Source of the DNA: Phycisphaerae bacterium
GTDB taxonomy: Bacteria > Planctomycetota > Phycisphaerae > FEN-1346
NCBI GenBank assembly: GCA_049678285.1
Contig: JBAUDW010000071.1
Coordinates: 294-64,293, forward strand
Length of the DNA: 64,000 bases
Reading direction: 5' to 3'
In this document: positions 10,004 to 35,461 of the stretch, piece by piece
How positions within the stretch are numbered: the stretch's first letter is position 1
How the letters are laid out: every line of letters starts with the position of its first letter
Notes under the pieces: generated by a model
Database searches by the model: none
What the model was told of the DNA's origin: nothing
Seen by the model: the letters and a program-made list of their open reading frames with translations, nothing else
Made by a program: the position numbers and the translations under genes

Positions 10004-10132
10004 CCGCACGGCCGCTTGAACAAAGGTGCTGCAACAGAAACTACACAGGATCGGAATGAACGCCACAACGAGGGCAGTACTCGGCCTTGTGGACCTGGCC
10101 ATTATCTTCATCCTCTAAGGAGGGAGAGTATT

Positions 10133-11278: not shown

Positions 11279-11464
11279 CTGGCGCTCAGCAGCAAGAAAA
11301 GGAGGTGGGTTGAACAGAAGAGCGCCAAACACTACGACGCCTGTCCAGGTCAGATGACGGCTGCCGACTGATCAGGACAGGGGGAAGGATTGGGACCTGT
11401 GCGGTGGCCGAAAAGCGGTTTCCGAGGGGTAAGTCGGATCCGAAACTATTTAGGAGATCGAATC

Positions 11465-16267: not shown

Positions 16268-16391
16268 GACCTCTCCTGGACCCAGGTCTGTGGAGACATG
16301 GGAGGAGATTCTGCGGAACAGGTGATGGATCTGGCGCTCGCTTGAGTGCTGTGTCCACGGCTGCCGCACGAGAAGAGGGGAGGTCGTGAGA

Positions 16392-22595: not shown

Positions 22596-24401
22596 ATGAT
22601 GGCCGAAGAGACACAGAAAAAGACACCGCGGGACCTCCTGAGGGCGGTTTTTCGCCACCGCCTGCTCTTTATGTCGAGCGCGGCGCTGTTTGCGTTTGCC
22701 ATCCTCGTAGGCGCCTGCTGGTGGCCGCTGAAGTATACGGCCATCGCCAAGCTCGCGCGCCGGTCCGACCCGGCGTCCGAGGACCTCGTTCGCGGCAGGA
22801 GCGAATCGTTCGATGCCCTGAAGATGACCCTTCAGCACGAACTTGTCGGCACTAATGCCGTCGAGGCCGCCGCGGAGGAACTGGAGAAAAAGCGGCTCCT
22901 TCCGGCGCTGCCGCGCGGCCAGGACGGCAAACTGACGACCGAGGGCAGGATGTTGCGCCAGGAAGTCGTGCGCAATCTCTCCGCCGACCTGAAGGTCATC
23001 TTTGAGGTGCGATCCAAGGAAGTGGACCTGGTCTCCGTTTCCTTCACGGACCCGGACCCGCGACTGGCGCAGGAACTGCCGAACACACTGATCACCAACT
23101 ACATCGACCGCATCAGCGAACAGATCGTCACCAACCTGACGTCCAGCCGCGACTTCCTCCAGACCAAGGTCGACGAGGCCAACACGCGTCTCGCGGAACT
23201 CACGCGGAAGCGGATCGACTTCGAAACCAAGTATGCGGGCATGTTGCCGGACAACCCGGGGGCGCTCCAGCAGGAAATTCAGCGCATCGCGACCGACACG
23301 GACACCGTCCGGCGCCAGCAGGCGCTGGCCAAGCAGAAACTGGACCAGATCAGGGTCATCCTGGGGCGCTCCGCGGCCCCCGAGGACGACGGGTCCGCTG
23401 CGGCGCCCGAGGGCGTCGGGTCCGCTACGGAGTCCGCCCTGTCCGCCGAGCGAGAATACAAAGACGCAACGCAGGATTTGGCCCGCCTCCAGGACCAGCA
23501 GCAGCAATACCAGCGGTCGCTCGACGAGTCGCGGACGCTGCTGCACATGACGGAAAAGCACCCGCGCGTCGTGGCGCTGCGGAAGCAGATCGACGCCCTC
23601 GACAAGCGGATCACGGAATTCAAGGTCCTCCGGTTGCCCGACCTCGAGAAGCGCCTGCGCGAAAGTCGGGCCCGCTTGCGGGCCGCGTACGGCGATTCCA
23701 TCCTCGACCCCTCCCGTCAGCGCAACCAGGAAATGCTTCAGGCCAATCTTACGATCCAGGAAACGACAGCCCAGTCCGAGTATCAGATGGCGACCAACGA
23801 ACTGGAACGCCTCCAGGCCCGCCAAGTCGCCCTCCAGAACATCATGAACAACTACGGTCCCGTGCGGCAGGAGTACCTGGGAATGATCAAGGAGGTGACC
23901 GACCAGCAGGCCGAGGTCGACAGGTGGCAGAAGCGGCGGACGGAAGTGCAGATGGCCCTGGCCGCCGAGGCCGCCAAGCACCGGACCCACCTGACCCAGG
24001 TGGAGTTGGCGCAGGAGCAGTTCAAGCCGTCGTCGCCCAAACTTCTTTACGTGCTGGCACTGGCCATCGTGGGCGGGCTGGCGTTCGGCGGGGGTCTGGT
24101 GTTCTTGACCAACACGGTGGACCGGTCCATCACGACCACCGAGGAGGCGACGGCCCATTTCGGCCTGCCGGTGCTGGGCAGCATAGGCGAGATTATGACC
24201 GCCCCGCAGAGGGCGCGCCGGAAGATGATCCGCTGGGGGCTGGGTCCCGTGGCGGCGGTGGTGGTGGCGCTGGCGATAGGGGCGGCGGCCCTGAACATCG
24301 CCCTGTGGCTGAACAGCCGCGAGCAGTACAGCCAGTGGCGGGCCTCACCCGTGCGGTTCGTGGTGTCCAAGATCGGCGACTCGCTGGCCGGCAAGATCTG
24401 A
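22596..24401 (+). CDS. polysaccharide chain-length determinant protein (Wzz/GumC/EpsF-like, PCP family)
   Basis: N-terminal TM (LLFMSSAALFAFAILVGACWW), a long coiled-coil periplasmic region, and a second C-terminal TM (LLYVLALAIVGGLAFGGGLVFL). Confidence 0.8.
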   Translation: MMAEETQKKTPRDLLRAVFRHRLLFMSSAALFAFAILVGACWWPLKYTAIAKLARRSDPASEDLVRGRSESFDALKMTLQHELVGTNAVEAAAEELEKKRLLPALPRGQDGKLTTEGRMLRQEVVRNLSADLKVIFEVRSKEVDLVSVSFTDPDPRLAQELPNTLITNYIDRISEQIVTNLTSSRDFLQTKVDEANTRLAELTRKRIDFETKYAGMLPDNPGALQQEIQRIATDTDTVRRQQALAKQKLDQIRVILGRSAAPEDDGSAAAPEGVGSATESALSAEREYKDATQDLARLQDQQQQYQRSLDESRTLLHMTEKHPRVVALRKQIDALDKRITEFKVLRLPDLEKRLRESRARLRAAYGDSILDPSRQRNQEMLQANLTIQETTAQSEYQMATNELERLQARQVALQNIMNNYGPVRQEYLGMIKEVTDQQAEVDRWQKRRTEVQMALAAEAAKHRTHLTQVELAQEQFKPSSPKLLYVLALAIVGGLAFGGGLVFLTNTVDRSITTTEEATAHFGLPVLGSIGEIMTAPQRARRKMIRWGLGPVAAVVVALAIGAAALNIALWLNSREQYSQWRASPVRFVVSKIGDSLAGKI

Positions 24402-24409
24402 GATGAATT

Positions 24410-25276
24410 ATGTATCTTGATTTCTACAATTTGCGTGAGTTCCCGTTCGCCATCACGTGCGACGACCGCTTCTTCTACGAAAGCACCGTCCACGCCGAGA
24501 CCCTGGCCAACATGATGTACACCGTCCAGCAGCGCAAGGGCATGGTCCTGGTGACCGGCGAGGTGGGGGCGGGAAAGACCTTCGTCGGCAACATGCTCGG
24601 TTCGCGCCTGGGCGTCGGATGCCAGACCGTCCTGATCAGCAATCCGCCGCAATCCAGCAAGCAACTCCTCAGCACCCTGGCACGGCGCCTGGGCATGAAC
24701 GTGCGCGCCAGCACCGACAAGGCGAGCCTCGTGGAAGAACTGGAGCGGTACCTGGTGGGCCTTAACAGCCGCGGCCGTCTTGTGGCGCTTATCTTCGACG
24801 AGGCCCAGGACCTGTCGCCGGCCAGCCTCGAGGAACTCCGCCTGCTGTGGAACTGGGAGCAGGGGGGCCGGCGCCTCATCCAGATTGTCCTCATCGGCCA
24901 GCCGGAACTGAGGCAGCGGTTGCTGGAACCGAAGTGGGAGGCGCTGCGCCAGCGTGTTGTTCTAAGTTACCACCTTCAGCATCTTTCGCCAGCGGACACC
25001 CCTTCCTATATCGCTCACCGCCTCCGCGTGGCCGGCGGCGACGCGTGTTCGGCCCAGTTCACGGCTTCGGCCTTGACCGACATCCATGCCGCCACCGACG
25101 GCATTCCCAGGCTGATCAACATTCTCTGCGACAATGCCCTGCTGGTGGGCTACGCCAAGGAGGTCCACTGCATCGACAGTCCGATCATCGCCGAGGTTGT
25201 CCGTGACATGACTTGTTGGGGCCTTCGCACGCCGTCCCCGGTACCGCAAGCCGCGCCCGCCAGCGGGCAGGAGTAG
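24410..25276 (+). CDS. ExeA/GspA-like AAA ATPase (PEP-CTERM-locus putative secretion ATPase)
   Basis: MYLDFYNLREFPF N-terminus, Walker A GEVGAGKT, Walker B LIFDEAQ. Confidence 0.8.
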   Translation: MYLDFYNLREFPFAITCDDRFFYESTVHAETLANMMYTVQQRKGMVLVTGEVGAGKTFVGNMLGSRLGVGCQTVLISNPPQSSKQLLSTLARRLGMNVRASTDKASLVEELERYLVGLNSRGRLVALIFDEAQDLSPASLEELRLLWNWEQGGRRLIQIVLIGQPELRQRLLEPKWEALRQRVVLSYHLQHLSPADTPSYIAHRLRVAGGDACSAQFTASALTDIHAATDGIPRLINILCDNALLVGYAKEVHCIDSPIIAEVVRDMTCWGLRTPSPVPQAAPASGQE

Positions 25277-25279
25277 ACT

Positions 25280-26128
25280 GTGGCCAACGTGTGGGATGCG
25301 ATGAAGAAGCACCAAGCCGAGCAGGCGGCAGCAGCGCCGCTGGCGACCGCCACGTCGCCGCAGGACGCGCCGGGTACGGCCGCGCCGGCGCAGGAGACGG
25401 TGCCGGCCACCGCGGCCGCAACGCAGGTGCCCGCGCCGGTCGGCGGCCCCGCGACTCTCGACGGCTATGCCCCGGAACTGTGCGCCCACTACGAGCGCGG
25501 CGGGGCGATAGCCGAAGACTTCCGCGGACTTCGCACCAGCCTGCTGGCCCGGTACTCCGACGAACGGTTCTGCGTTCTCGTCACGTCGGCCGAGAAGGGT
25601 GAAGGCAAAACGGTGGCCTGCCTCAACCTGGCGTTGGTGCTGGCCGAACGCCAGGAACGCCGCACCGTGGTCGTCGATTGCGACCTCCGCGCCCGCCGCG
25701 TGGCCAAACTGATGCGCATAGCCAACGCCCCCGGCGTTGCCGACCTGCTACGCGGCGCGGCCCGCGTCGAGGACGTCCTGCGCAAGACAGCCTACCCAAA
25801 CCTGTTTGTGATCCCCGCGGGCGAGGCCGGCAAGGGCGAGGTGGGCGACCTGCTGCACCGCCCGGAACTGCAAGAGACTTTCAACGCCCTGCGTCGGCAG
25901 TACGACTACGTGCTCCTCGACACGCCGCCCGTGGTCGTCGCCCCCGACGCCTGCATGCTGGGCCCCGCCGTGACCGACGCACTCGTAATTGTTCGTATGT
26001 ACAAGACACGCCGCGAGACGGTCGATAGCGCCATCAGCCTCCTGCACGGGGCCAACATCAAGCCGGTGGGCGTGGTGCTGACGCATCGCCGATACTACAT
26101 ACCCAAGGTGCTCTACTACCACACGTAG
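25280..26128 (+). CDS. BY-kinase-type tyrosine autokinase ATPase domain protein (EpsG/CapB/Wzc C-terminal-domain-like)
   Basis: P-loop SAEKGEGKT, Walker B VVDCDLR, DYVLLDTPPV, and a C-terminal tyrosine cluster RRYYIPKVLYYHT. Confidence 0.8.
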   Translation: MANVWDAMKKHQAEQAAAAPLATATSPQDAPGTAAPAQETVPATAAATQVPAPVGGPATLDGYAPELCAHYERGGAIAEDFRGLRTSLLARYSDERFCVLVTSAEKGEGKTVACLNLALVLAERQERRTVVVDCDLRARRVAKLMRIANAPGVADLLRGAARVEDVLRKTAYPNLFVIPAGEAGKGEVGDLLHRPELQETFNALRRQYDYVLLDTPPVVVAPDACMLGPAVTDALVIVRMYKTRRETVDSAISLLHGANIKPVGVVLTHRRYYIPKVLYYHT

Positions 26129-26275: not shown

Positions 26276-28681
26276 TCACGTGCCCTGCCAGTCTCCACTG
26301 CCGGTGCTGGAAGGCCTGGAACCCTTGATGAATGTGGTCACAAACGGGTCGTACAGAAAGGCCCCGCCGATGCCGCTGACAATCGGAATGAGCACCGAGG
26401 CCATGTCTGCCCCGCGACTGTGAAGAAACAGTTGGCCTGCCTCCAACCCGATCGCAATCGCTGCCGTAACCGATGCGGCCAATGCAATCGCAAGGCGTCG
26501 GCCTGCCAGTCCCCCTGCCAGGCTCTTCAGGAGCATGCCGATTACAACAAAAACAATAAACTCGCGGGCCACAGTGGCCGCGGCACTGACCTCCGTCTGG
26601 TGGTAGAGGTACGTCAGCGGGGCACGAATGGCATGCTGGAGGTGTGCTCCCAACCCCCCCGGCGGCCATTCAAACCCAAACGGGCGCCACTTGTACCATA
26701 CACAGGCCCCCAGCCAGGCACTGAGCGCCGTTGCTTTGATCCACCAGCCGTGCCGCGTCCAGAATGCGGTCTCCGTGAGGCCCGGCCGCGCCTCCGGGCC
26801 GAAATGGCGGCCCGCCCAGGCGCCCGCGGCCACACCGACGGTCCCCAGGACGACATCCGTTGCACTGGCAAAGCGAGAGGCGATGAAGATCTGCAGGAAC
26901 TCGATTCCTGTCGCAAACAGGACCCCGTAGCCAACGACCAGCCATGGACGGCGTCTCGTGGCCGAAAACAGGAGGGCCAACAAGTAGCCGATGGGCATCA
27001 TCATCGCTACTGTCGACAGGATTGCGTACAGATCAAGCCCATGAAGATCGGCAAACGGCACGAAGTGGATCTGGCCGTTCTTGAGCCTGTGGTAGATCTC
27101 CTCCGGCCGGATGATGATATCCATGGGAAGCAACTGGTACAGGAAGAGTCCCACGGCGTAGCCCGCGAGGATCTTGACCGCGCGCCTGCCCTGTACGTGC
27201 TCCTGCCACAGGCTGTGGCCCCAGCAAGTCACCACGCTCCCGGCCAGGAACCACACCGCGATGCCGATGGCGTTGCCGATGCACTGGGCGAGGATGTCGC
27301 TGAACGCCGTGGTTCGCACCAGGCAGAAGAGCTGCGAGAACTCAACGCCCGCGCTCAAGAGCCCGCCGCCTATCATCAGGCCGACGGCCGCCAGCCATCG
27401 GGCGCGGCGCATGTTTTCCCGCGTCAGGACACCCATGCCGAAAAAGCCAAGCGGCACACCGATGAGCACGTTGGCGGCGAAGTCCGTCCGGGAAAAGTGA
27501 ATCAGGGTCGAGGGCCAGCGGCTCAGGAAATCGGCCCAGGCGTCCCCGAGAGTCCTGCTCCTGAATTCCAGGGGTACAAGACTCCCGTAGATCAGAAAAG
27601 CCGCATAGAAGAGGAGCAGGAGACGGTACCCTCGCCCGGACACCTTGTACGGACACACCCTACTCACGCCGCGGGGTTCCGCCGCGCCCGCCAGGAGAGG
27701 CCGCTGTCCGGCCGCGACTACCGCGCGGCGGAACGGTTGAAGCATCAGGGCCACGAGCTGGCCGTAAGCGAGGGTGAACACGGCCGCTACGTAGACCAGC
27801 GTCCATCGAAGAAGGAATGCGGCCTTGGGAAGGTTCGTTTGCCGCTCCGGCCCCAGAAGGAACCGCACCGCCGGAAAAGTAATGCCGTACTTCGTCAACT
27901 GCGGTACCAATGCCGCGTCCAGCAGCAACCAGCCGAGGAAGGCCAGGATCGGTGTGGCAACCAAGGCGAGGAGACAGGAGCCGGCCCTTGGGCTCCGCCA
28001 CGTATGGGCGACGACCGAGGCGTTCAGCCCGAGGAGGAGCACCAACACCATGAGGAACGCATCTCCGGGATAGGGATCATCCCGAATCAGCTCCGTCAGG
28101 TTGTCCGTGCAGGCCCACTCGATGACCACGAAATGCACCAGCAGCAGCAAGGGAAGGTTGGTGAAGAGCAGCCCCAGGCCTGTCTGAATGCCTGCGTACG
28201 TCCCTGACCGGGACGCTGTGCCGACAGCGGCACTTGCGGCGATCAGGATGATCGCGGAGCCGCCGTACTGGGCCAGGAAACGGCATATATACTCCCAGTC
28301 CCAGCCCCATCGCAGCACCGGCGATCCGAGGATATCGTCGATGCTTTCGGTCGTGACCGACAGCCGGAGGAGCACCCACGCGACGAGCGCGACCATCGCT
28401 GCCCAGACGGGGGTTCCAAGCGACCACCGGGGGTTCTTCAGGAACAGTCCCGCCACCCACGCAGGCGCAAATCCGCCGAACAGGAGAAGGGCAGCAAAGA
28501 GGACTGCCGATACGTCGGCGTGCCCGGGAGGGAAGAGTTCGCGAACGTTGTAAGGAACCCCCGGAATGCGGACGAGCACCCAACTGGCGATGGAGAGGGC
28601 CGCCAGGCCGATCAGTGCCAGGATAACCGCCGGTTTCCGGCTAAAACGATCAGGCGCTCCGGCCATCTGCTCACGGTCCAT
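26276..28681 (-). CDS. 801-aa polytopic membrane protein with two VanZ-like domains
   Basis: About 20 predicted TM helices. Two segments carry VanZ-family-like motifs (..HFSRTDFAANVLIGVPLGFFGM.. and ..AFSDILAQCIGNAIGIAVWFLAG..ATDVVLGTVGVAAGAWAG). It has its own start MDREQ. The plus-strand ORF 26255..28207 is antisense noise. Confidence 0.6.
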   Translation of the reverse strand: MDREQMAGAPDRFSRKPAVILALIGLAALSIASWVLVRIPGVPYNVRELFPPGHADVSAVLFAALLLFGGFAPAWVAGLFLKNPRWSLGTPVWAAMVALVAWVLLRLSVTTESIDDILGSPVLRWGWDWEYICRFLAQYGGSAIILIAASAAVGTASRSGTYAGIQTGLGLLFTNLPLLLLVHFVVIEWACTDNLTELIRDDPYPGDAFLMVLVLLLGLNASVVAHTWRSPRAGSCLLALVATPILAFLGWLLLDAALVPQLTKYGITFPAVRFLLGPERQTNLPKAAFLLRWTLVYVAAVFTLAYGQLVALMLQPFRRAVVAAGQRPLLAGAAEPRGVSRVCPYKVSGRGYRLLLLFYAAFLIYGSLVPLEFRSRTLGDAWADFLSRWPSTLIHFSRTDFAANVLIGVPLGFFGMGVLTRENMRRARWLAAVGLMIGGGLLSAGVEFSQLFCLVRTTAFSDILAQCIGNAIGIAVWFLAGSVVTCWGHSLWQEHVQGRRAVKILAGYAVGLFLYQLLPMDIIIRPEEIYHRLKNGQIHFVPFADLHGLDLYAILSTVAMMMPIGYLLALLFSATRRRPWLVVGYGVLFATGIEFLQIFIASRFASATDVVLGTVGVAAGAWAGRHFGPEARPGLTETAFWTRHGWWIKATALSAWLGACVWYKWRPFGFEWPPGGLGAHLQHAIRAPLTYLYHQTEVSAAATVAREFIVFVVIGMLLKSLAGGLAGRRLAIALAASVTAAIAIGLEAGQLFLHSRGADMASVLIPIVSGIGGAFLYDPFVTTFIKGSRPSSTGSGDWQGT

Positions 28682-29298
28682 TGTGTTTTCGATCCAGGCG
28701 GCAAACGAAGCGGCCGCATCGAACGGCCGCGAGTACAGGCGTCAACTCAAAGTACCTCATCGGCCGGCCGGATTCAAGGTGCGACGGCCGCTCTGCCGAG
28801 AAAATCGTCCGGATCTTGGCCAGCGGGGCCGATGCCTGAGGACGGCGAAGGGTGCCGGTAGCCGGAGCCAAGGTCGTGCATTGGAGGTGCACGTTGACAG
28901 TTCCGGGCAAGGCGGGCACGCCGGAGAGGACCAAGGCCCGGCGCATGCTGTCAGCATGAAGTCACATACCGCTGGATGGGCCCTCTACCGTGTGGGTTCA
29001 ACAGGTTGTGTACCTGGTTGGCACCGAGGGCATGCCGACGCGGGCAATGGGGTATCGAAGCCAGATATCTGCTTGGCCCAGCGCATAAGGGGGCCAAACT
29101 CCGACGCATCGCGCCGGAGTAACCATCCAAGGCCTTCGCCGAATCCGGGTGCAGGCCCCTTTCATAAAATGACGATAAGCAACAGCGGTCGCGTTGCTCT
29201 TTGGCATCTGAGCGTGTCCCCAAAAGCTGGGCGCGGGTTTAAGGTGGAATCGTCTCCGGGTAGAATAGGGCGGCACGAGCAGCCGAGGAGACGATCGG

Positions 29299-29598
29299 AT
29301 GGCAGGGAAACGCAGACGGTTTTCGGCGGAGTTCAAGGCCCGGGTCGTTCGAGCGGCGCTCCGGGAAGACAAGACGCTGGCGGAGTTGGCTGGCGCGTTC
29401 GAGGTGCATCCGAACCAGATCACCGAGTGGAAGCGTCAGGTGCTGGAGGCCATGCCGGATCTGTTTGGTCGTCGCAAGCAGGCCGACGCGAAGTCGGCCG
29501 AGGAGCACGAGGCTCGGCTGTACCAGCAGGTCGGTCAGCTCCAGGTGGAACTGGAGTGGCTGAAAAAAAAAGCTCGGCAGCTTGGCATGGACGTCTGA
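29299..29598 (+). CDS. IS3-family transposase OrfA (HTH)
   Basis: [36 protein letters not shown]; ends [10 protein letters not shown] at the A9 run. Confidence 0.85.
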
Positions 29599-30673
29599 GG
29601 CGAAGCGAATGATGGTCGAACGCGACAATCCGAACATCCCTGTCGTCCGGCAGTGCGAGTTGCTGACGCTGTCGCGCAGCAGCCTGTACTACCGCCCCGC
29701 TCGCGACGAGGAGGCCGAGGCCTTCGAGTGTCGGGTCTTGAACGCCATCGACGAGTTGTACACGGCCCGTCCGCACCTGGGGCGGTACGGCATGACCGAC
29801 GCCCTGGCCCAGGAGCGACAACTCGAGGTGAACCCCAAGCGGGTGCGTCGGCTGATGAAGATGCTGGGGTTGGAAGCGGTCTATCCTCGGCCGCGGCGGA
29901 ACACGTCGCAGGCCAGTGCCGAGCACCCGAAGTACCCATACCTGCTGCGGAACGTGGAGGTTAGCGCCGTGGATCAGGTCTGGTGCGCGGACCTCACGTA
30001 CATCCGGCTTCATCGAGGCTTTGCCTACCTGGTGGCGGTGATGGACTGGTTCAGCCGCTGCGTGCTGGCGTGGGAGTTGAGTAACACGCTGGACGCGAAC
30101 TTCTGCGTGGAGGCCTTGGCGCGGGCCTTGGCTTCGGGCCGGCGGCCGGCGATCTTCAACACCGACCAGGGCAGCCAGTTTACGAGCGAGGCCTTCACGA
30201 CGGTGCTGATGGAGGCGGGGATCGCCATCAGTATGGACGGGGTGGGCCGGGCGTTCGACAACATCATGGTCGAGCGGCTGTGGCGGACGGTGAAGTACGA
30301 GGAGGTGTACCTGCGGGACTACGAGACGCCGGCGGAGGCCCGCTTGGGGCTGGGTCGGTACTTCAGGTACTACAACCATCAGCGGCGACACAGGAGCCTG
30401 GATCGGCGGACCCCGGCCAGCGTGTATGGCTTGGCCGAGCCGGCCACGGTCCAGCGGGCTCTTGTGCGGCTGGTGAGAAGCGATAGAATCGAGACACCTG
30501 CCTTCGCCAAGGCTTCGGCGGGCAGGGGCGGCGGGCGTTCCGTCGCCGCGAATGCTGCTGTCGCTCCGGTCGCCCTCCGGGCTCCCTCCGCGACAGCAGC
30601 GGGAACGTTACCCATGGCGACGGTTCCACCTTATTCCAGGCTGGAAACTGTCCAGCGCATGGGGACAAGCTAA
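29582..30673 (+). CDS. IS3-family transposase OrfB (DDE integrase core)
   Basis: [43 protein letters not shown]. It has a low-complexity C-terminal tail running into the right end. Confidence 0.9.
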
Positions 30674-31021
30674 ATCCTCGGCGGATTCGCCGGTTTGCAT
30701 TGGGGGGGATTATGAGTTATACTACCGCGTGCTTGCGGCGGTTTTCGCTCGCATATGCTCCCTACGCCATGCGGCAGGGCCGGTGCGTGGGAGTCTGGGT
30801 TTGCACCCATGCGTTGCGGCGTTGTCGCTGTCCATCACGCAACCGAGCCATAGGGCTCCGAGGCACCGTAACTCGCGTTCTTCAAGTGGGGCAGCTTGGA
30901 TGAGGCAGGAAAGCCCGACCGCCGCGATGGGGGTGTCTATATGCGCTGGTGCTGGCGTGCGGCACCGCCAGGGCGCCTTGCTGGGCCGGGAATGGCTGAA
31001 TGCGGGCGATATCTGTTACCG

Positions 31022-32305
31022 ATGAAACGATTGCTGTTCATCGCCCATCGCGTGCCGTATCCTCCCGACAAAGGGGAGCGTGTACGCGCATTTCATGAAA
31101 TTGTTGCGCTCGCGGAGCACTTCAGCATTACGCTAGCCGCTTTGGCGCATTCTGACGGTAATGTCGCCGCTGCATCGGAGCTTGGCCGCTGGTGCGAGAA
31201 GGTCCTGACGGGCCGCGCTGGGGGGCGCATGGGCATCATGCGCGGCGCGCTCTCTGTGGCGGCCGGCAAGAGCGCCACGGAGGGCTTCTTCAAGAACAAC
31301 CGGCTGTTGCGCACACTGGTGGAGGAGGCCGACAAGCAGCCGTTCGACATTGTCTTTGGTAACTCCTCAAGCACCTTGCCCTATGTGCTGGCCGTCCCGG
31401 CGAAAGCGCGGGTGATAGACTTGGTCGATGTCGATAGTGCCAAGTGGAATTTCTATGCCCATGCCGCCTGGTGGCCCAAGAGCGTCCTGTACCGGATGGA
31501 GGCCCGCGGCGTCGGCGCCCTCGAGCGGCGGGCCGTCGAGACGTGCGATGCGGTGCTCCTCGTAAGCGAAGCCGAGGTCGCAGCGCTCAGCCTCACGAGT
31601 GACAAGGTCACGGCTATTGGCAACGGCGTGGACACGGACTTCTTCAAACCGGATGGCACTGTGCCGCAACAGGCCACTGCTCTCGTGTTCACGGGAACCA
31701 TGGATTACCGGCCAAACGTGGAAGGCGTCTGCTGGTTCGTACGGGAAGTCTGGCCGGAGTTGAAACGCCGCGCGCCCGAACTGACCTTCACCATCGTGGG
31801 GCGCGACCCGTCGCGGGCCGTTCGCAAACTCTCGGAGGTGCCTGGCGTGCGCGTTACGGGCGCGGTTCGCGACGTGCGGCCGTACCTAACCGCAGCCACG
31901 GCCGCCGTCGTGCCGCTTCGCATCGCGCGGGGCGTCCAGAACAAGATTCTCGAGGCGATGGCCATGGGCCGCGCGGTCGTCGCATCCCCTCAGGCGATTG
32001 AGGGCCTTGACGTGAATGTCGGCGAGGAGGTTCTTTGTGCCGAATCGCCGGATGAGTGGGTCGCTGTCGTCCTGGGCCTGCTTTCGGCCGGCGGTCGCCG
32101 CGAACGTCTGGGCCAAGCCGCTCGTAAGCGCGTCGTCTCTGATTACAGTTGGGCCTCGCGGATGATGCCACTGGTGTCGCTCTGCACCGACCTGGCGGGC
32201 GCAAGCGAACCCGCGCAGGGAGCACCGCGGCAAACGGACCGTGATGCCGCAAGGTTGCGACATGTGGGCGGCCTCGCCGAGCCGCTCCAGGGGGCGACGC
32301 CATGA
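31022..32305 (+). CDS. GT4-family glycosyltransferase of the PEP-CTERM/EpsH1-associated sugar transferase type
   Basis: N-terminus MKRLLFIAHRVPYPPDKGERVRAFHEI is characteristic of the exosortase-locus-associated GT4 subfamily. C-terminal GT4 blocks (EGxxxxxLEAMAMGRAVVAS). Confidence 0.75.
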   Translation: MKRLLFIAHRVPYPPDKGERVRAFHEIVALAEHFSITLAALAHSDGNVAAASELGRWCEKVLTGRAGGRMGIMRGALSVAAGKSATEGFFKNNRLLRTLVEEADKQPFDIVFGNSSSTLPYVLAVPAKARVIDLVDVDSAKWNFYAHAAWWPKSVLYRMEARGVGALERRAVETCDAVLLVSEAEVAALSLTSDKVTAIGNGVDTDFFKPDGTVPQQATALVFTGTMDYRPNVEGVCWFVREVWPELKRRAPELTFTIVGRDPSRAVRKLSEVPGVRVTGAVRDVRPYLTAATAAVVPLRIARGVQNKILEAMAMGRAVVASPQAIEGLDVNVGEEVLCAESPDEWVAVVLGLLSAGGRRERLGQAARKRVVSDYSWASRMMPLVSLCTDLAGASEPAQGAPRQTDRDAARLRHVGGLAEPLQGATP

Positions 32306-32751
32306 CGCCCCGCGTGAACAAAGCAGCCTGGATCGTGACCGCGATTTACACAGCCCTTCTGACAACGGCAAGCCTCTTGCCATCGGGTCAAGGCCCGCTC
32401 GGCGGCTGGGACGCGTCCATTTCGCCCGACTTGCAGGACGCCCTGCACCTTCTAGCCTACGCCGGGCTTGTGGTCTTATGGACCCTCTTCTATTCCACAC
32501 GGTCTCCCCTGAGCACCCGCTCGATCCTTGCCGTCACTTGTGCGTGCGTGGCCTTCGGCGCCGCAATGGAACTGGCCCAATCCGTCATCCCCGGCCGGAC
32601 GTGTTCGCTGAACGACGGCCTGGTGAACCTTGTCGGCGTCATCCTGGGTTACCTTGCACTCGTTGCGTGGCGGCGTTTCCGTCCGGTCGGGCCGGCTGTG
32701 TGTCAAAGCGGACCGGCGGCACAGGAGTCGGCGAGGTGTGCGGAGCAATGA
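32302..32751 (+). CDS. VanZ-family small membrane protein
   Basis: 149 aa, 4 TM helices, AMELAQSVIPGRTCSLNDGLVNLVGVILGY (VanZ-like E..Q..GR..D..N..G pattern). ATGA overlaps with both neighbours. Confidence 0.65.
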   Translation: MTPRVNKAAWIVTAIYTALLTTASLLPSGQGPLGGWDASISPDLQDALHLLAYAGLVVLWTLFYSTRSPLSTRSILAVTCACVAFGAAMELAQSVIPGRTCSLNDGLVNLVGVILGYLALVAWRRFRPVGPAVCQSGPAAQESARCAEQ

Positions 32752-33917
32752 TCGAAGGCCGGACCATCCTGTGTTTCGCCAGCGGCTACGACGCGCCGCC
32801 GACCAGCAAGCACCACGTGATGCACTTGCTGGCCGAGCGGAACACCGTGCTCTGGGTCAACTACCACGCCTCCCGTGCGCCCACGGCCAGTGCATCGGAC
32901 CTTCGTTACATGGCCCGGAAGGTAGGCCAGATCCTCCGGGGCATCACGAACCCGCGCAAGAACCTGTACGTGCTGACGCCACCTGTCCTGCCGCTGCCGG
33001 GTAGTGCGATAGCCAAACGCATCAACCGTCGCCTGCTCATCGCAAGGATTCGGTCGGCGCTGAGGCGCGTGGGGCACGGCCCCGTGCAGGTCTGGTCGTT
33101 CACGCCTGACATCTCGTACCTCCTGGGCCATTTCGGCGAAGAGAAGGTCGTCTATTACTGTGTCGACGATCACGCCTCGTTCTCGGGATACGATGCGGAG
33201 CAGGTAAGGCGCGACGAGGCCGATCTGTGCCGGAAGGCCAACTTGGTGGTGACGACTTCGCACGCCCTCCAGGAGGCCAAGGCCCCGTTGAATCCCAACA
33301 CGATCCTGGTGACCCACGGCGTCGATTACGAACATTTCTCGAAGGCCGTGACCGAGGACCTGGCCGTGCCGGAGGACATTAAGGACATACCGCACCCGAT
33401 TCTGGGCTTCTTCGGCCTCATCCGCGACTGGGTGGACCTGGACCTCCTTGCCGAGGTCTGCCGCCTGCGGCCGGACTGGCATGTCGTTCTCATCGGCGAC
33501 TCGACGGTGAACCTGGCGCCGTACCGGGGCATCCCGAACATGCATTTCCTCGGCCGCCGGCCGTACGCGGACCTGCCGGCCTACTGCAAGGCATTCGACG
33601 TTGGCCTGATCCCGTTCAGGATGAATGAGTTGACCAAGGCCGTCAACCCCATCAAACTGAAAGAATACCTGGCGGCGGGGCTGCCGGTGGTCTCGACGCC
33701 CCTGCCCGAGGTGCGGCTTTACGATCATCTGGTCGAAGTGGTGGAGGATGCCCGGGCTTTCGCCGCCTCGGTCGAGTCATGCCTGGCGCGGGGCGCGGAT
33801 GTCCGGAGCGAACGCTCACGCTCCATGGCGTCCGAGACTTGGGCCGAGAAGGTGAGTTTCATCTGCTCGCATCTTCAGCGCGCGGCCGTGGCCGGCCTCG
33901 CGAGAGGAACGCCATGA
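32748..33917 (+). CDS. GT4-family glycosyltransferase
   Basis: Start ATG overlaps the VanZ stop (ATGA). GT4 C-terminal domain blocks (VLIGDS.., DVGLIPF, EYLAAGLPVVSTP). Confidence 0.75.
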   Translation: MIEGRTILCFASGYDAPPTSKHHVMHLLAERNTVLWVNYHASRAPTASASDLRYMARKVGQILRGITNPRKNLYVLTPPVLPLPGSAIAKRINRRLLIARIRSALRRVGHGPVQVWSFTPDISYLLGHFGEEKVVYYCVDDHASFSGYDAEQVRRDEADLCRKANLVVTTSHALQEAKAPLNPNTILVTHGVDYEHFSKAVTEDLAVPEDIKDIPHPILGFFGLIRDWVDLDLLAEVCRLRPDWHVVLIGDSTVNLAPYRGIPNMHFLGRRPYADLPAYCKAFDVGLIPFRMNELTKAVNPIKLKEYLAAGLPVVSTPLPEVRLYDHLVEVVEDARAFAASVESCLARGADVRSERSRSMASETWAEKVSFICSHLQRAAVAGLARGTP

Positions 33918-35461
33918 GCAGCGCGCGAGTCCACGCCCGCAATCTGCTCGCCAACTGGACGGCTCACGGCGCCAACCTGGTGGTGCTGTTCTTCCTCTCG
34001 CCGTTCATCGTTCACACGCTCGGCAAGACGGAGTACGGCATATGGAGCCTGCTGACGGTCCTGACGGGGTACCTGGGCGTCTTCGACCTGGGCGTCCGCG
34101 CCAGCACAGGGCGCTACGTCATCCTGTACCTTGGGCAAGGCGACCACGAGAAGCTCGACCAGACGGTCCGGACGGGTCTGGGCTTCTTCAGCGTCGCGGG
34201 GCTGCTGATCATCCTGGCGAGCGTCGTCGTCGGCATCGGGTTCCCCACGTTCTTCCCGTCGTCACCGGCGGAGTACCATGCCCAAGTCGGGGTGCTCCTG
34301 CCCATCCTGGCCGTCAACATCTGGCTCTCCGTCGTCGGCGCCATTTTCGGGAGCGTCCTGATGGCCCACGACCGGTTCGATCTGATGCGGACTGTGGACC
34401 TCACTGTCCTTGCCGTCCGCACCGGCGGCACGGTGGCGGCCCTGCTCCTGGGGTACGGCATCGTGGGGCTGGCCCTGGCGACGGTGGCCTGCGGCGTGCT
34501 GGCGGTAGCGGGGAACTACATCCTGGCGCGGCGGATCTATCCGCGCCTCCGCGTCTGGCCCCTGACGCTCGTCCGGGCGCGGCTGCGCGAACTGTTCGGC
34601 TACGGCATTGCGGCCTTCATCTCGAACGTGGCCGTCAAGATCATCGGCCAGACGGACCTGATCATTGTCGGCGCGCTCATCAGCGTGGGGGCCGTGACGG
34701 TCTACTCCGTCGGAGCCATGCTGGTCTACTATTCCTGGACTTTTCTGGGCCACATCGGTTCGACTCTCTTCCCTCCTGTGCAGCGTGCGGCAAGCACGGG
34801 GGACTACGAGTCGGTCCGATGGTACTACCTTCGCCAAGTCCGCTTGGGGTTCGTTTTCGGCGTGCCCGCCTACATCGGGTTCATCATGTTCGGGGAACCG
34901 TTTATCCGGCTCTGGATGGAAGACGCCACGTTCCCTGCAACTGCGGTCCACCAAGCCGCCGTCGTTATGACCATTCTGAGCCTGTCGAAACTGTTCTCCC
35001 TATCGTCCATCGGGGCCACGACGCTACTCGCGGCCACCGGCCATATCCGCTACAGCGCCACCGTCAAGGTCTTAGAGGCGGTGCTGAACCTGGGGCTTTC
35101 CGTCTTCTTCGTGCTTGTGAGTGATTGGGGCCTGGCCGGCGTCGCGGCCGGCACGTTGGTCGCCCGCGTGTTGGTCAGCGCCGTTCTCCTTCCCTGGCGG
35201 GCGAACCGCGCGGTCAAGACCCGGGCAATGAGATTCCTGGGGGTCCTCGGCCTGGGGCTGGTGGCAGGGGGGGGGTTCGCCGGATGGTGCTTCCTGATGC
35301 GGTCTGTGATTCCGGGCGGGTCGTGGGCGATGTTCTGGGTCCAGGTGGCCCTGGCCCTGCTGGGCTACATGCCGATGGCGTTTTCCCTATTGGTGCCGCC
35401 GGCGGATAGAAACCGCTTCCTCCGCCTCCTCAAAGTTGTCCGCACCCGGCGTACGGAGTGA
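33914..35461 (+). CDS. Wzx-like oligosaccharide flippase (polysaccharide biosynthesis protein, MOP/PST superfamily)
   Basis: 515 aa with ~12-14 TM helices and an N-terminus typical of PST-family flippases (LLANWTAHGANLVVLFFLSPFIVHTLGKTEYGIW). ATGA overlap with the upstream glycosyltransferase. Confidence 0.75.
   Translation: MSSARVHARNLLANWTAHGANLVVLFFLSPFIVHTLGKTEYGIWSLLTVLTGYLGVFDLGVRASTGRYVILYLGQGDHEKLDQTVRTGLGFFSVAGLLIILASVVVGIGFPTFFPSSPAEYHAQVGVLLPILAVNIWLSVVGAIFGSVLMAHDRFDLMRTVDLTVLAVRTGGTVAALLLGYGIVGLALATVACGVLAVAGNYILARRIYPRLRVWPLTLVRARLRELFGYGIAAFISNVAVKIIGQTDLIIVGALISVGAVTVYSVGAMLVYYSWTFLGHIGSTLFPPVQRAASTGDYESVRWYYLRQVRLGFVFGVPAYIGFIMFGEPFIRLWMEDATFPATAVHQAAVVMTILSLSKLFSLSSIGATTLLAATGHIRYSATVKVLEAVLNLGLSVFFVLVSDWGLAGVAAGTLVARVLVSAVLLPWRANRAVKTRAMRFLGVLGLGLVAGGGFAGWCFLMRSVIPGGSWAMFWVQVALALLGYMPMAFSLLVPPADRNRFLRLLKVVRTRRTE

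Follow-up and report, generated by a model that had tools for sequence, protein, structure and literature searches.

A triple VanZ cassette fused to an eight-helix membrane domain in an exosortase-type exopolysaccharide locus of a Phycisphaerae bacterium

The window analysed here, a stretch of 64,000 nucleotides from a Phycisphaerae bacterium (assembly GCA_049678285.1, contig JBAUDW010000071.1), carries an exosortase/PEP-CTERM-type exopolysaccharide (EPS) locus in which two genes encode VanZ proteins, one of 801 and one of 149 aa (Table 1). The exosortase, fused to EpsI, clears only the generic TIGR02602 cutoff, and scores 116 against the XrtA cutoff of 208. The two PEP-CTERM proteins, presumed substrates of the exosortase, end in ..PEPVTMAG(L/M)LLGIG...RKRR, and the DNA encoding this tag is repeated at 78% identity. 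The large VanZ gene is monocistronic, lies 19 kb from the exosortase gene, and is convergent with the kinase gene of a chain-length determinant/ATPase/kinase trio that abuts the exosortase in relatives. An IS3 element stands between it and the glycosyltransferase (GT) operon, separating the two VanZ genes, and a related inverted copy of this element is found at 7348-8331. The window also encodes a PEP_O_lig_1-GT4 fusion (47326-49947).

Table 1. Features of the window, in order of position
Feature	Coordinates	Strand	Remarks
Exosortase-EpsI fusion	5452..7140	-	Pfam Exosortase_EpsH 173.5 bits, DUF3485/EpsI 85.1 bits
Two PEP-CTERM-tagged proteins	10016..12433	+	10016-11278 and 11372-12433
Chain-length determinant, PEP-CTERM-system ATPase, tyrosine autokinase	22596..26128	+	Best matches TIGR03007, TIGR03015, TIGR03018, all under their cutoffs
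801-aa protein gene	26276..28681	-	Intact ORF; N8, cytoplasmic linker, M1, M2, M3
VanZ module M3	26330..26767	-	aa 639-784; E747 and upstream Asp D759 kept
VanZ module M2	26801..27193	-	aa 497-627; E594, Q597, R603, D609 kept
VanZ module M1	27203..27637	-	aa 349-493; D400, N404, E447, Q450, R456, D462
N8 domain, 8-TM	27734..28645	-	aa ~13-316
IS3-family insertion sequence	29299..30673	+	orfA 29299-29598, orfB 29582-30673; HTH_Tnp_1, rve, HTH_21
GT4, TIGR03087 'stp1' PEP-CTERM/XrtA-system family	31025..32305	+	422.3 bits vs cutoff 316.65
Stand-alone 149-aa four-TM VanZ	32302..32751	+	H49, E90, Q93, R99, D105, N109 conserved
GT4-type glycosyltransferase, weakly TuaH-like	32748..33917	+	Start overlaps VanZ stop
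Wzx/MurJ-type lipid-linked-oligosaccharide flippase	33914..35461	+	Polysacc_synt_3, MurJ, Polysacc_synt matches

Both VanZ ORFs lie exactly where a first-pass annotation had placed them. GC3 along the larger one was 0.70-0.85, and its product was colinear with 12 orthologues (33-80% identity). The protein matched Pfam VanZ (PF04892) in three stretches with 100.6 bits against a cutoff of 30.1, and scanning in pieces gave 41.7 bits at aa 358-479, 52.6 at aa ~517-623 and 26.9 at aa ~698-777. The corresponding modules, M1, M2 and M3, were mutually homologous by hhalign (M1-M2 97%, M1-M3 94.5%, M2-M3 93%). The annotation had described tandem VanZ modules in a protein with ~20 TM helices; the VanZ homology and the multi-module fusion were borne out, but the modules number three and not two, while hydropathy and an AlphaFold2 model of moderate confidence (full length, pLDDT 75.4, pTM 0.62) gave the 20 helices as 8 + 3x4. 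It had also missed that one third of the protein is a separate 8-TM domain without a Pfam match (N8). When alternative assignments were sought in Pfam and NCBIfam, no O-antigen-ligase or other family claimed the protein; its sole NCBIfam match was the generic vanZ_1 model, and no curated exosortase-associated NCBIfam family covered it. The 801-aa protein is a 20-helix inner-membrane protein made of five four-helix units, the first two forming N8 and units 3-5 the VanZ triple cassette (VanZx3). In 13 orthologues, loops assigned to the cytoplasm carried a net charge of +19.7 per sequence and the motif-bearing loops one of -7.5, and the conserved polar motifs of N8 and the VanZ modules are therefore all periplasmic.

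The match of M1 (41.7 bits) covers the whole Pfam VanZ profile, and each of the six residues listed for it in Table 1 is invariant in 96/96 triple cassettes from several phyla. Four of them (N404, E447, Q450 and D462) align with N57, E92, Q95 and D107 of VanZ-A of Tn1546, and the M1 residues agree with published VanZ-1 motifs (PMC12419801). M1 is the only module of the protein in which all canonical VanZ-1 catalytic positions (N404, E447, D462) are kept. M2 and M3 of the window protein are degenerate, each being without one canonical residue. M2 has T557 at the helix-2 catalytic position, where relatives carry Asp (53 of 96), Glu (21) or Thr (4). M3 has E707 at the helix-2 position and S762 at the canonical helix-4 Asp position, which is Asp in 61/96 and Asn in 14/96 relatives; its D759 is aligned to D104 of VanZ-A, not to D107. 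Most relatives retain more acidic residues in M2 and M3 than the window protein does, and these two modules may still be active.

The first ~340 aa of the protein, which include N8, gave no Pfam match even at E<=1 and no NCBIfam model. Structural relatives of N8 were looked for in the PDB and none were found, and the comparisons run showed it to be unrelated to VanZ, exosortase, EpsI or Wzy_C. N8 is a 4+4-TM internal duplication, and its four periplasmic loops bear invariant acidic, amide and Arg motifs (PYNVRELF, ES..DILGSP, TDNLTEL and KYG..F..RFLL..R). Because it has neither a homologue of known function nor a structural neighbour, any role given to N8 is a guess. It could be a channel, scramblase or flippase for lipid-linked glycan in a non-enzymatic scaffold, sensor or transporter whose VanZ modules bind lipid or carrier, a proposal that we regard as quite improbable.

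The N8 family comprises 763 clusters at 50% identity and was found in 252 species genomes. N8 and the M1-M2-M3 cassette occur as fusions, in both orders, or as overlapping neighbour genes: 145 of 218 N8 proteins were fused to VanZ, in either order, and in 3/3 contexts examined a stand-alone N8 gene came after a VanZx3 gene and overlapped it by 4 bp. VanZ was present in the same or the adjacent ORF as N8 at 72 of 79 genome loci, and two N8 loci were without VanZ within 10 kb. This Rosetta-stone evidence points to a functional coupling of N8 and VanZ, in a partnership that looks obligate. Nineteen single-chain proteins consist of VanZ, a ~600-aa Wzy-like region and N8; further cassette fusions bring DUF4962 and heparinase II/III domains, and beta-helix proteins adjoin the cassette. 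The large fusion had been put forward as possibly novel. As an architecture it is common, shared by hundreds of clusters whose sole annotation is 'VanZ family protein', and duplicated VanZ-1 with inactive 'VanZ-i' copies is already catalogued (PMC12419801 and supplement). What does seem undescribed is the N8 partnership and the repeated exosortase linkage of VanZx3; no papers mentioning VanZ together with exosortase were found in the literature searched.

The 149-aa protein scored 38.5 bits against the Pfam VanZ cutoff of 30.1 and 34.4 against 20 for NCBIfam vanZ_1. Together with the ATGA overlaps found at both ends of its gene, this upholds the earlier description of a true VanZ coupled between two GT4 genes. 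The frame of the downstream GT is open back to 32241, overlapping the VanZ ORF, and codon-position GC supports the VanZ frame over the GT frame (GC3 0.73 vs 0.55). Thirty orthologues were found, and H49, E90, R99, D105 and N109 were at least 95% conserved in 31 sequences; the protein keeps a complete catalytic-type residue set. The GT upstream, whose stop codon overlaps the VanZ start, matched Pfam Glyco_trans_1_4 and Glyco_transf_4, and the flippase gene is ATGA-coupled to the GT before it. The VanZ gene is co-translated with two GT4 genes upstream of a Wzx flippase, and the GT-VanZ-GT order with overlapping codons was kept in 3/3 related EPS loci.

This position, among cytoplasmic GTs and a flippase, is where dead-end intermediates arise, and it would suit an alternative in which both VanZ proteins only hydrolyse surplus, stalled or aberrant Und-PP intermediates to recover Und-P, with N8 as an anchor or regulator. 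Such hydrolysis is the only experimentally reported activity of the family (yeast Llp1 and E. coli YfiM, in a preprint), and both M1 and the small VanZ have the full catalytic set, which suits a hydrolase. Many members also occur outside EPS/exosortase loci, which would be expected of a housekeeping salvage enzyme. However, the triplication of a four-TM hydrolase and its tie, in both orders and as overlapping genes, to N8, a strongly conserved domain with invariant periplasmic motifs of its own, would be left unexplained, as would the Wzy_C-like and heparinase-like polymer-handling fusions and the translational coupling to exosortase. We consider this recycling role possible, but lean against it.

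The genomic context of relatives bears on the link with exosortase. An exosortase was present within 10 kb at 9 of 30 fully flanked N8/VanZ loci and absent at 21; these loci are not phylogenetically independent, several being from Nitrosospira, and the chance level for such proximity is roughly estimated at ~0.5-1.5% for a gene with 1-3 copies per genome of several Mb. At least one XrtA-type marker occurred at 17/30. At one locus (L091) the exosortase gene overlaps VanZx3 by 4 bp and is thus translationally coupled to it, with GT4, Wzy_C, GT4 and GT2 genes following; at another (L069) exosortase, EpsI, VanZx3 and N8 form a contiguous same-strand run, and at two more (L005 and L007) a VanZx3/N8 pair lies 1-4 kb from exosortase and EpsI. 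Nitrosospira and Azonexus loci have a bona fide XrtA ~8 kb away, and Planctomycetota orthologues adjoin an exosortase-EpsI fusion, a 1,500-aa TPR protein and a DUF3473 deacetylase. The association extends across Planctomycetota, Beta- and Deltaproteobacteria, and family members also occur in unrelated gene contexts (P0040 and P0070); the link is frequent, not obligatory.

The L091 overlap, the L069 run, the proximity at L005 and L007 and this taxonomic spread could also be read as a sorting step and not EPS synthesis, in which N8-VanZx3 would prepare or deliver a lipid-linked or phospho-glycan acceptor for the transfer of cleaved PEP-CTERM proteins by exosortase. Two PEP-CTERM proteins are encoded in the window, and transesterification has been raised as possible Lipocone chemistry (PMC12419801). 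The first-pass annotation had named the exosortase substrate as another thing that the VanZ proteins might handle. Against this, most loci are without exosortase within 10 kb, the 801-aa protein falls in no curated exosortase-associated family, and a glycan acceptor for exosortase is hypothetical; we think this wholly inferential reading improbable.

The best reading of these observations, we infer, is that both VanZ proteins are enzymes which face the periplasm and act on EPS intermediates linked to polyprenyl diphosphate, by cleavage or transfer. The handling of lipid-linked glycan, already proposed in the first-pass annotation, is in keeping with the literature (bioRxiv 10.64898/2026.09.16.752124; PMC12419801). 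As to substrate, chemistry and the division of labour between the two proteins, M1 would be the catalytic module, with the helix-2 Asn, the helix-3 Glu of ExxQ and the helix-4 Asp; the analogy with VanZ, Llp1 and YfiM suggests that, once a polyprenyl-PP-linked glycan has been flipped, M1 attacks its diphosphate bridge on the outer side of the inner membrane. M2 and M3 are probably substrate-binding or structural copies, as 'VanZ-i' is elsewhere, and N8 may hold either the glycan or the molecule that accepts it. The 801-aa protein would then release the EPS chain, still growing or complete, from its carrier, or pass it to an acceptor. The 149-aa VanZ, a single domain, may act in the same pathway as a pyrophosphatase of lipid-linked oligosaccharides, clearing or recycling repeat-unit intermediates that are bound to the carrier. 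The N8 fusion, the Wzy_C-like and heparinase-like fusions and the beta-helix neighbours lead us to favour release or transfer at the polymer level. Such release or transfer of the EPS chain by the 801-aa protein, as part of an exosortase-linked EPS pathway, is a tentative proposal, to which we give slightly less than an even chance.

VanZ-A of Tn1546 (Enterococcus faecium) is the prototype of PF04892 and of the VanZ-1 family, which has been assigned to the Lipocone superfamily and connected with exopolysaccharide genes (PMC12419801). M1 shares its four-helix membrane core, helix-2 Asn, helix-3 ExxQ and helix-4 Asp, and the active site is predicted at the outer face of the membrane in both; M1 has Ser/Ala vs the upstream D104 of VanZ-A and Gln/Glu vs its N111. 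VanZ-A is a single 161-aa domain from a Gram-positive glycopeptide-resistance operon, unlike the 801-aa protein with its three modules, two of them degenerate, its 8-TM domain and its EPS/exosortase context. A teicoplanin-type glycopeptide or lipoglycopeptide resistance determinant, as VanZ is in Tn1546, would agree with PF04892 membership and with a weak vanZ-F match of the small protein (18.6 bits vs a cutoff of 375). We find this scarcely credible, since vanHAX, vanRS and vanY genes were not found in the window, the host is a Gram-negative-type planctomycete relative, the conserved neighbours are all EPS or exosortase genes, and few VanZ-1 genes occur in resistance contexts (PMC12419801).

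Llp1 and YfiM belong to the same superfamily as the VanZ proteins described here, and VanZ, Llp1 and YfiM have been described as Ca2+-dependent lipid-linked-oligosaccharide pyrophosphatases (bioRxiv 10.64898/2026.09.16.752124). This preprint, citing Li et al. (2025), reports for yeast Llp1 and E. coli YfiM the cleavage of polyprenyl-PP-glycans at the diphosphate bridge, by a His/Glu/Arg/Asp/Asp site. The spacings of H49, E90, R99, D105 and N109 in the 149-aa VanZ (41, 9, 6 and 4) equal those of the preprint's H87, E128, R137, D143 and D147, with Asn in place of the last Asp; this is a match of spacing and not an alignment, because the numbering does not fit the 161-aa VanZ-A. Both Llp1 and YfiM consist of one domain, and their role is quality control in N-glycosylation or in envelope precursor pools.

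An active N-terminal copy followed by degenerate copies, as predicted here, is also found in the VanZ-1 + VanZ-i proteins of Betaproteobacteria (Burroughs et al., eLife 2025, PMC12419801). That system has two VanZ copies in one protein, encoded in an operon of four genes whose other products are a ferredoxin, an alpha/beta-hydrolase lipase and a metallo-beta-lactamase-fold transpeptidase, and no such ferredoxin, lipase or transpeptidase neighbours were seen at the loci examined here. Fusions of VanZ to DUF4962 and to Wzy_C are recorded in the same study and its supplement, but it describes neither a triple cassette nor N8 as a partner nor a link with exosortase; in its data Exosortase_EpsH occurs at 1 locus and '8TM' at 2, and neither was kept for analysis.

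WaaL and Wzy_C (PF04932) enzymes, among them the exosortase-associated TIGR03097 'PEP_O_lig_1', are polytopic in the inner membrane, have catalytic loops in the periplasm and use Und-PP-linked glycan donors, as proposed here, and the VanZx3 cassette can be fused to a Wzy_C-like region in place of, or in addition to, another partner. The PEP-CTERM/exosortase accessory set (Haft et al. 2006, PMC1569441; NCBIfam TIGR030xx) has neighbourhoods and taxa in common with VanZx3/N8, the latter including Nitrosospira, Nitrosomonas, Zoogloea, Thauera, Aquincola and Planctomycetota, and VanZx3/N8 co-occurs with the stp1 GT, amidotransferase, deacetylase, FemAB-like, chain-length and kinase genes of this set.

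An ORF encoding 801 aa was confirmed at 26276-28681 on the reverse strand, as the first-pass annotation had described. Since codon-position GC was of the coding type along the whole ORF and its product showed full-length colinearity with 12 orthologues (33-80% identity), we conclude that this is an intact gene. The protein matched the Pfam VanZ family (PF04892) in three stretches, with 100.6 bits against a cutoff of 30.1, and the NCBIfam model NF037970 with 35.4 against a cutoff of 20, in keeping with its earlier description as VanZ-like. Two such modules had been proposed. For module mapping, we cut the protein into four pieces and scanned each alone with Pfam. Module M1 (aa 358-479) scored 41.7 bits and covered the entire profile, M2 (aa ~517-623) scored 52.6 bits, and M3 (aa ~698-777) reached 26.9 bits, which is under the cutoff by itself. 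Profile-profile comparison with hhalign showed that the modules are mutually homologous (M1-M2, 97%; M1-M3, 94.5%; M2-M3, 93%). Taken together, the piecewise scans and profile comparisons ruled out a two-module architecture, and the protein contains three. The first 340 residues gave no Pfam match even at E ≤ 1, and one third of the large protein, referred to here as N8, is something other than VanZ.

Hydropathy and an AlphaFold2 model (pLDDT 75.4) both gave 20 transmembrane (TM) helices, arranged as 8 + 3 × 4, in agreement with the ~20 anticipated. Proteins of the VanZ-Skillet clade have four core helices and, between H1 and H2, a helical 'handle' (PMC12419801). In the model, which is of moderate confidence, M1, M2 and M3 each show this fold, with H1 followed by a short helix (Table), H2, H3 and H4.

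We then compared the modules with the active site of the VanZ-1 Lipocone family, which comprises an Asn in H2, a Glu within an ExxQ motif in H3 and a canonical Asp in H4 (PMC12419801). Our residue assignment for M1 follows the motif definitions of that paper and not the numbering of a preprint (bioRxiv 10.64898/2026.09.16.752124), as direct mapping of the preprint residues H87, E128, R137, D143 and D147 on Tn1546 VanZ-A fails, this protein having 161 aa and a Glu at position 92. In clean triple cassettes from several phyla, D400, N404, E447, Q450, R456 and D462 of M1 were each invariant (96/96), and N57, E92, Q95 and D107 of VanZ-A aligned with N404, E447, Q450 and D462. M1 carries the VanZ-1 residue at all three canonical positions; the full H4 motif DxDDxxxN is missing, and S/A-x-x-D-x-x-x-Q/E is found instead. 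Neither M2 nor M3 of the window protein has the complete site. M2 has T557 at the H2 position, which is Asp or Glu in most relatives, and retains the Glu, Gln, Arg and Asp (E594, Q597, R603 and D609). In M3, E707 occupies the H2 position and S762 that of the canonical H4 Asp; only E747 and the upstream D759 are retained, the latter being the counterpart of the upstream D104 in VanZ-A. At its canonical H4 position M3 carries Ser in the clade of the window protein and Asp in 61 of 96 relatives. Judged by these residues, M1 is the only fully canonical module. M2 and M3 are homologous to M1 (93-97% in hhalign) yet non-canonical, and are therefore best described as resembling VanZ-i, the inactive copy; the window protein thus parallels the catalogued duplication of VanZ-1 with an inactive VanZ-i (PMC12419801).

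The identity of N8 was examined by profile comparison. All probabilities against the VanZ modules, exosortase, EpsI and Wzy_C-type regions were ≤2%, including 0.17% for exosortase, 0.2% for the Wzy-like region of relatives and 0.06% for the PEP_O_lig_1 domain encoded in the window. The large protein had no match to PF04932, and N8 was unlike Wzy-type regions, which disposes of the O-antigen ligase that had been named as an example of an alternative to VanZ. There was no NCBIfam exosortase match, including to TIGR02602 '8TM_EpsH', a family with Cys/Arg/His catalytic residues, and none of the positions conserved at ≥85% across 211 N8 segments was a Cys or His. These values (0.06-2%) and the lack of family matches led us to reject a degenerate VanZ, an exosortase, EpsI or a Wzy_C/O-antigen ligase as the identity of the N-terminal third, and no structural relative was found in the PDB, the database searched. 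Conservation within N8 was pronounced: an alignment of 12 sequences from different lineages contained the invariant residues P43, Y44, N45, E48, E112, S113, D116, G119, E130, R134, T192, D193, N194, E197, F274 and R280, and the TDNLxEL, KY and R280/R292 positions were 88-98% conserved over the 211 segments. Comparison of one half of N8 with the other gave a probability of 86% over 118 columns, pairing PYNVRELF with TDNLTELI and R134 with R292, and all controls stayed below 1.3%. This one profile match with clean controls suggests that N8 is a 4+4-TM internal duplication, and hence that the whole protein consists of five 4-TM units.

As far as profiles can tell, N8 is a distinct family without a name. 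An exhaustive profile search recovered 763 representative clusters at 50% identity, 554 of them at E ≤ 1e-30, and a scan of species-representative genomes found an N8 relative in 252, so that this large, conserved, unnamed subfamily spans at least 252 species. These include Planctomycetota, Nitrosospira, Nitrosomonas, Thauera, Zoogloea, Thiobacillus, Azonexus, Rhodoferax, Deltaproteobacteria and Nitrospira. Proteins with N8 or the triple VanZ cassette (VanZx3) are currently labelled merely 'VanZ family protein' or 'hypothetical protein', and N8 merits its own Pfam/NCBIfam model.

Searches of all collected homologues with four-part HMMs (N8, M1, M2 and M3) showed that the M1-M2-M3 block recurs in many arrangements. 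Among 218 collected N8-containing proteins, with V denoting a VanZ module, the architectures were N8 alone (73), V-V-V-N8 (57), V-N8 (39), V-V-N8 (20), N8-V-V-V (19), N8-V-V (9) and N8-V (1). N8 comes first in Planctomycetota and last in Burkholderiales and relatives. Stand-alone N8 genes lay directly downstream of a VanZ gene of 438-473 aa, with a 4-bp overlap, in all three cases examined, and VanZ modules were present in the same ORF as N8 or an adjacent one at 72 of 79 genome loci. Pairing is not obligate: at two fully flanked loci (L010 and L052) N8 is encoded by itself, and not even tblastn revealed VanZ-like sequence in the 10-kb flanks; these are exceptions to an otherwise near-constant association. 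In 19 proteins, VanZ, a Wzy-like region of ~600 aa and N8 share a single chain, and other N8/VanZ proteins carry added DUF4962 and heparinase II/III-like domains. Such fusions and overlapping genes constitute Rosetta-stone evidence that the parts act together, on polysaccharide-level substrates.

The second VanZ gene of the window, at 32302-32751 on the forward strand, encodes 149 aa, as previously called, and matched PF04892 (38.5 bits, cutoff 30.1) and the NCBIfam vanZ_1 model NF037970 (34.4, cutoff 20). ATGA overlaps were present on both sides, as had been noted, and a third joins the downstream glycosyltransferase (GT) to a Wzx/MurJ-type flippase. The frame of the downstream GT is open back to 32241, across the small VanZ ORF; since GC3 was 0.73 in the VanZ frame and 0.55 in the competing one, we consider the small VanZ gene to be real. 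A GT with a long N-terminal extension in its place (ORF 32241-33917) was rejected on codon-position GC and the Pfam match in the other frame. Pfam and NCBIfam matches identified both neighbours as GT4 glycosyltransferases, again as annotated: the upstream one is TIGR03087 'stp1', a PEP-CTERM/XrtA-system glycosyltransferase (422 bits, above cutoff), and the downstream one is GT4-type and weakly TuaH-like. We collected 30 orthologues of the small VanZ (148-151 aa), and in all three related contigs examined the order GT (425 aa)-VanZ-GT (384-390 aa) lay inside an EPS (exopolysaccharide) locus with a Wzx-type flippase, and stop codons overlapped the start codons that follow them. H49, E90, Q93, R99, D105 and N109 were ≥95% conserved in 31 orthologues. 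The spacing of the site residues (41, 9, 6 and 4) equals that of the residues described as catalytic in 'VanZ' (H87, E128, R137, D143 and D147; bioRxiv 10.64898/2026.09.16.752124), with Asn and not Asp at the last position; because the published numbers do not fit the 161-aa VanZ-A, the likeness is one of spacing only.

Both genes are VanZ family members, and glycopeptide resistance, as with the VanZ of vanA-type clusters, was considered as a function. No vanHAX, vanRS or vanY genes were found among the window ORFs scanned, and the small protein scored 18.6 bits against the vanZ-F model, far under its cutoff of 375. We regard a role in resistance as exceedingly improbable.

The window carries an exosortase/PEP-CTERM-type EPS locus (Table), which also encodes an initiating sugar transferase, an outer-membrane export protein, a chain-length determinant, a system ATPase, a tyrosine kinase, several GT4s and two Asn-synthase-like amidotransferases. 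The exosortase-EpsI fusion passed only the generic exosortase model TIGR02602 (108.9, cutoff 105.55) and fell under the cutoffs of XrtA, XrtD, XrtW and other named subtypes; the label 'XrtA' was therefore rejected. An exosortase-EpsI fusion at a relative's locus (L018) showed the same sub-cutoff pattern, and the fusion in the window may represent an unnamed planctomycete subtype. For most accessory genes of the window, XrtA-system families were the best match, with scores under threshold. The tags of the PEP-CTERM paralogues are encoded by a 76-nt direct repeat of 78% identity (11193-11268 and 12357-12432). The ORF overlapping the amidotransferase genes could reflect a frameshift, a fusion or a spurious high-GC ORF. 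The forward-strand 512-aa ORF beside the flippase gave no NCBIfam match and no TM segment, indicating a soluble product; as a conserved partner it was rejected, having no homology to the unannotated 506-508-aa Wzx-adjacent genes of L087 and L088.

Features of the EPS locus in the window, helices of the large protein and genes at relatives' loci
Feature	Sequence	Coordinates	Strand	Remark
Exosortase-EpsI fusion	window	5452-7140	-	adjoins 1,541-aa TPR protein
IS3-family element	window	7348-8331	-	related to the other IS3 element, inverted orientation
PEP-CTERM-tagged tandem paralogues	window	10016-11278, 11372-12433	+	no Pfam family
IS4-like DDE transposase	window	13701-14975	+	inside IS3-bracketed stretch
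FeeM-like N-acyl amino acid synthase	window	16386-17366	+	PF21926, 101.7 bits; within EPS region
512-aa ORF	window	17385-18923	-	strong coding GC3, no Pfam match
Hybrid histidine kinase	window	19106-20698	-	near FeeM-like gene
IS3-family element	window	29299-30673	+	related to the other IS3 element, inverted orientation
512-aa ORF	window	35625-37163	+	strong coding GC3, no Pfam match
Two Asn-synthase-like amidotransferases with a third long overlapping ORF between	window	37200-39059, 38966-40540, 39967-42312	+	XrtA-system-like, sub-cutoff
873-aa fusion	window	47326-49947	+	N-terminal PEP_O_lig_1 (Wzy_C-like, exosortase-associated 'O-glycosylation ligase'), C-terminal stp2-like GT4
Handle helices	large protein	aa 378-387, 526-534, 676-686		AlphaFold2 model
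ElyC-like DUF218 gene	L005	5876-6676		directly upstream, overlapping or abutting split VanZx3 and N8 genes
ElyC-like DUF218 gene	L007	5888-6688		directly upstream, overlapping or abutting split VanZx3 and N8 genes

Of the three transposases that break up the locus, one, an IS3 element, separates the two VanZ genes. The paired IS3 elements, which bracket ~21 kb of the EPS locus, are 76% identical over 421 nt (arms 7540-7960 and 29971-30391). At L001 and L002, gene order is unlike that of the window, and the kinase, ATPase and chain-length genes directly adjoin the exosortase gene. The inverted IS3 pair and this difference in gene order together suggest an IS-associated rearrangement in the window locus.

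A connection to exosortase systems was also seen in relatives. Planctomycete orthologues adjoin a DUF3473 deacetylase, a TPR protein of ~1,500 aa and an exosortase-EpsI fusion. At L091, a stand-alone VanZx3 gene overlaps the exosortase stop codon and is followed by GT4, Wzy_C, GT4 and GT2 genes; at L069, exosortase, EpsI, VanZx3 and N8 are contiguous on a single strand; and at L005 and L007 an ElyC-like DUF218 gene precedes the VanZx3 and N8 pair, with exosortase and EpsI 1-4 kb away. L005 has an extra 144-aa VanZ (10825-11259), mirroring the window's pairing of a large and a small VanZ. Bona fide XrtA (347-355 bits, cutoff 208) was found ~8 kb away at the Nitrosospira and Azonexus loci. Among 30 loci with full 10-kb flanks, which are phylogenetically non-independent, an exosortase occurred within 10 kb in 9 and at least one XrtA-type marker in 17, set against a chance expectation of ~0.5-1.5% for a one-to-few-copy gene in a several-Mb genome, which is a rough estimate and not an empirical background. 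Most loci thus have no exosortase nearby, and obligate linkage was rejected, L004 and L090, for example, lying in unrelated contexts with no exosortase. Side by side, these contexts bear on the proposal that the large protein supplies the acceptor for the exosortase, which we consider unlikely.

Other recurrent neighbours were a right-handed beta-helix protein (24 loci), an Asn-synthase-like amidotransferase (20-21), deacetylases and a FemAB-like acetyltransferase. The beta-helix protein (~450 aa, PF13229; e.g. L076, 7358-8716) is the commonest VanZ-N8 neighbour in proteobacterial loci, usually on the same strand, and could act as a partner of the polysaccharide lyase or epimerase type; the window does not encode it.

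Topology was analysed over 13 orthologues, using helix boundaries from the model and length-normalised charge. Loops assigned to the cytoplasm had a K+R density of 0.175 and a net charge of +19.7 per sequence, and the opposite loops 0.073 and -7.5; this family-wide analysis was decisive, the raw positive-inside count of a single sequence (17 vs 18 K+R) giving no clear sidedness. The asymmetry indicates that the N-terminus is cytoplasmic and that all the conserved polar motifs, in N8 as in the three VanZ modules, face the periplasm, and since each unit has an even number of helices, sidedness is the same for either domain order. Flipped polyprenyl-diphosphate (polyprenyl-PP)-linked glycans are found on this side of the membrane.

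Members of the Lipocone superfamily, including VanZ, are predicted to have phospholipid or polyisoprenoid-lipid head groups as their substrates, and VanZ-1 is statistically associated with exopolysaccharide genes (PMC12419801). A preprint describes Llp1, VanZ and YfiM as lipid-linked-oligosaccharide pyrophosphatases that depend on Ca2+ (bioRxiv 10.64898/2026.09.16.752124, citing Li et al. 2025). By analogy, we infer that M1 would act on the periplasmic side and cut a carrier-linked EPS intermediate at its diphosphate bridge, with M2 and M3 as degenerate binding or structural copies and N8 holding the glycan or an acceptor. The large protein would then release or transfer the chain rather than act as a mere scavenger, and the small VanZ could be a simple carrier-recycling pyrophosphatase for the co-translated repeat-unit assembly line. 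Pure quality control or recycling by both VanZ proteins, favoured by the reported pyrophosphatase activity and left unexplained by it being tied to N8, is a possible if rather doubtful alternative. A non-enzymatic scaffold or transporter is highly improbable. A broader reading takes N8-VanZx3 as the missing link between EPS synthesis and PEP-CTERM sorting: it would move a polyprenyl-PP-linked glycan or glycan-phosphate onto an acceptor by periplasmic Lipocone transesterification, thereby creating or being the attachment step that the exosortase needs, with N8 as a pair of extremely diverged Lipocone-like units in a five-Lipocone machine. We offer it as a speculation that is quite unlikely to hold as a whole.

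Release or transfer of the chain by the large protein would bear on two long-standing questions, namely how Wzx/Wzy-type EPS leave the undecaprenyl-diphosphate carrier in Gram-negative bacteria, and what exosortases attach PEP-CTERM proteins to. Wastewater bacteria such as Zoogloea and Aquincola depend on exosortase/PEP-CTERM systems for flocculation. The large protein is a concrete candidate enzyme with defined predicted catalytic residues (N404, E447 and D462), and orthologues occur in genera with cultured, partly genetically manipulated strains, making knockouts and in-vitro assays feasible.

In comparison with known systems, M1 is VanZ-1-like at the tested active-site positions, and M2 and M3 are VanZ-i-like, as far as residues alone allow. 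The betaproteobacterial VanZ-1 + VanZ-i system is a four-gene operon that includes a [2Fe-2S] ferredoxin, an alpha/beta-hydrolase lipase and an MBL-fold D-Ala-D-Ala transpeptidase (PMC12419801). None of these three was present among the called neighbours in 9 inspected contexts or the recurrent neighbour clusters of 79 loci, and the large protein, missing these operon partners, lies outside that system, as it does outside the Wzy_C (PF04932) and exosortase families. The suggestion that the large fusion architecture may be novel held in part. The Lipocone supplementary tables already list proteins with several VanZ copies, as well as fusions of VanZ to Wzy_C or DUF4962; an exosortase appears there in one locus and '8TM' in two, both excluded from that analysis (PMC12419801). 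The N8 family and the exosortase context appear to be new, and among papers in the library searched none names both VanZ and exosortase. VanZ chemistry, the cleavage of lipid-linked oligosaccharides, has been assigned only recently, and here it would be hard-wired to a new 8-TM domain that is repeatedly encoded beside exosortases. What we rate as new is therefore the joining of a presumed chemistry of a known type to a domain family and a system context that are both new.
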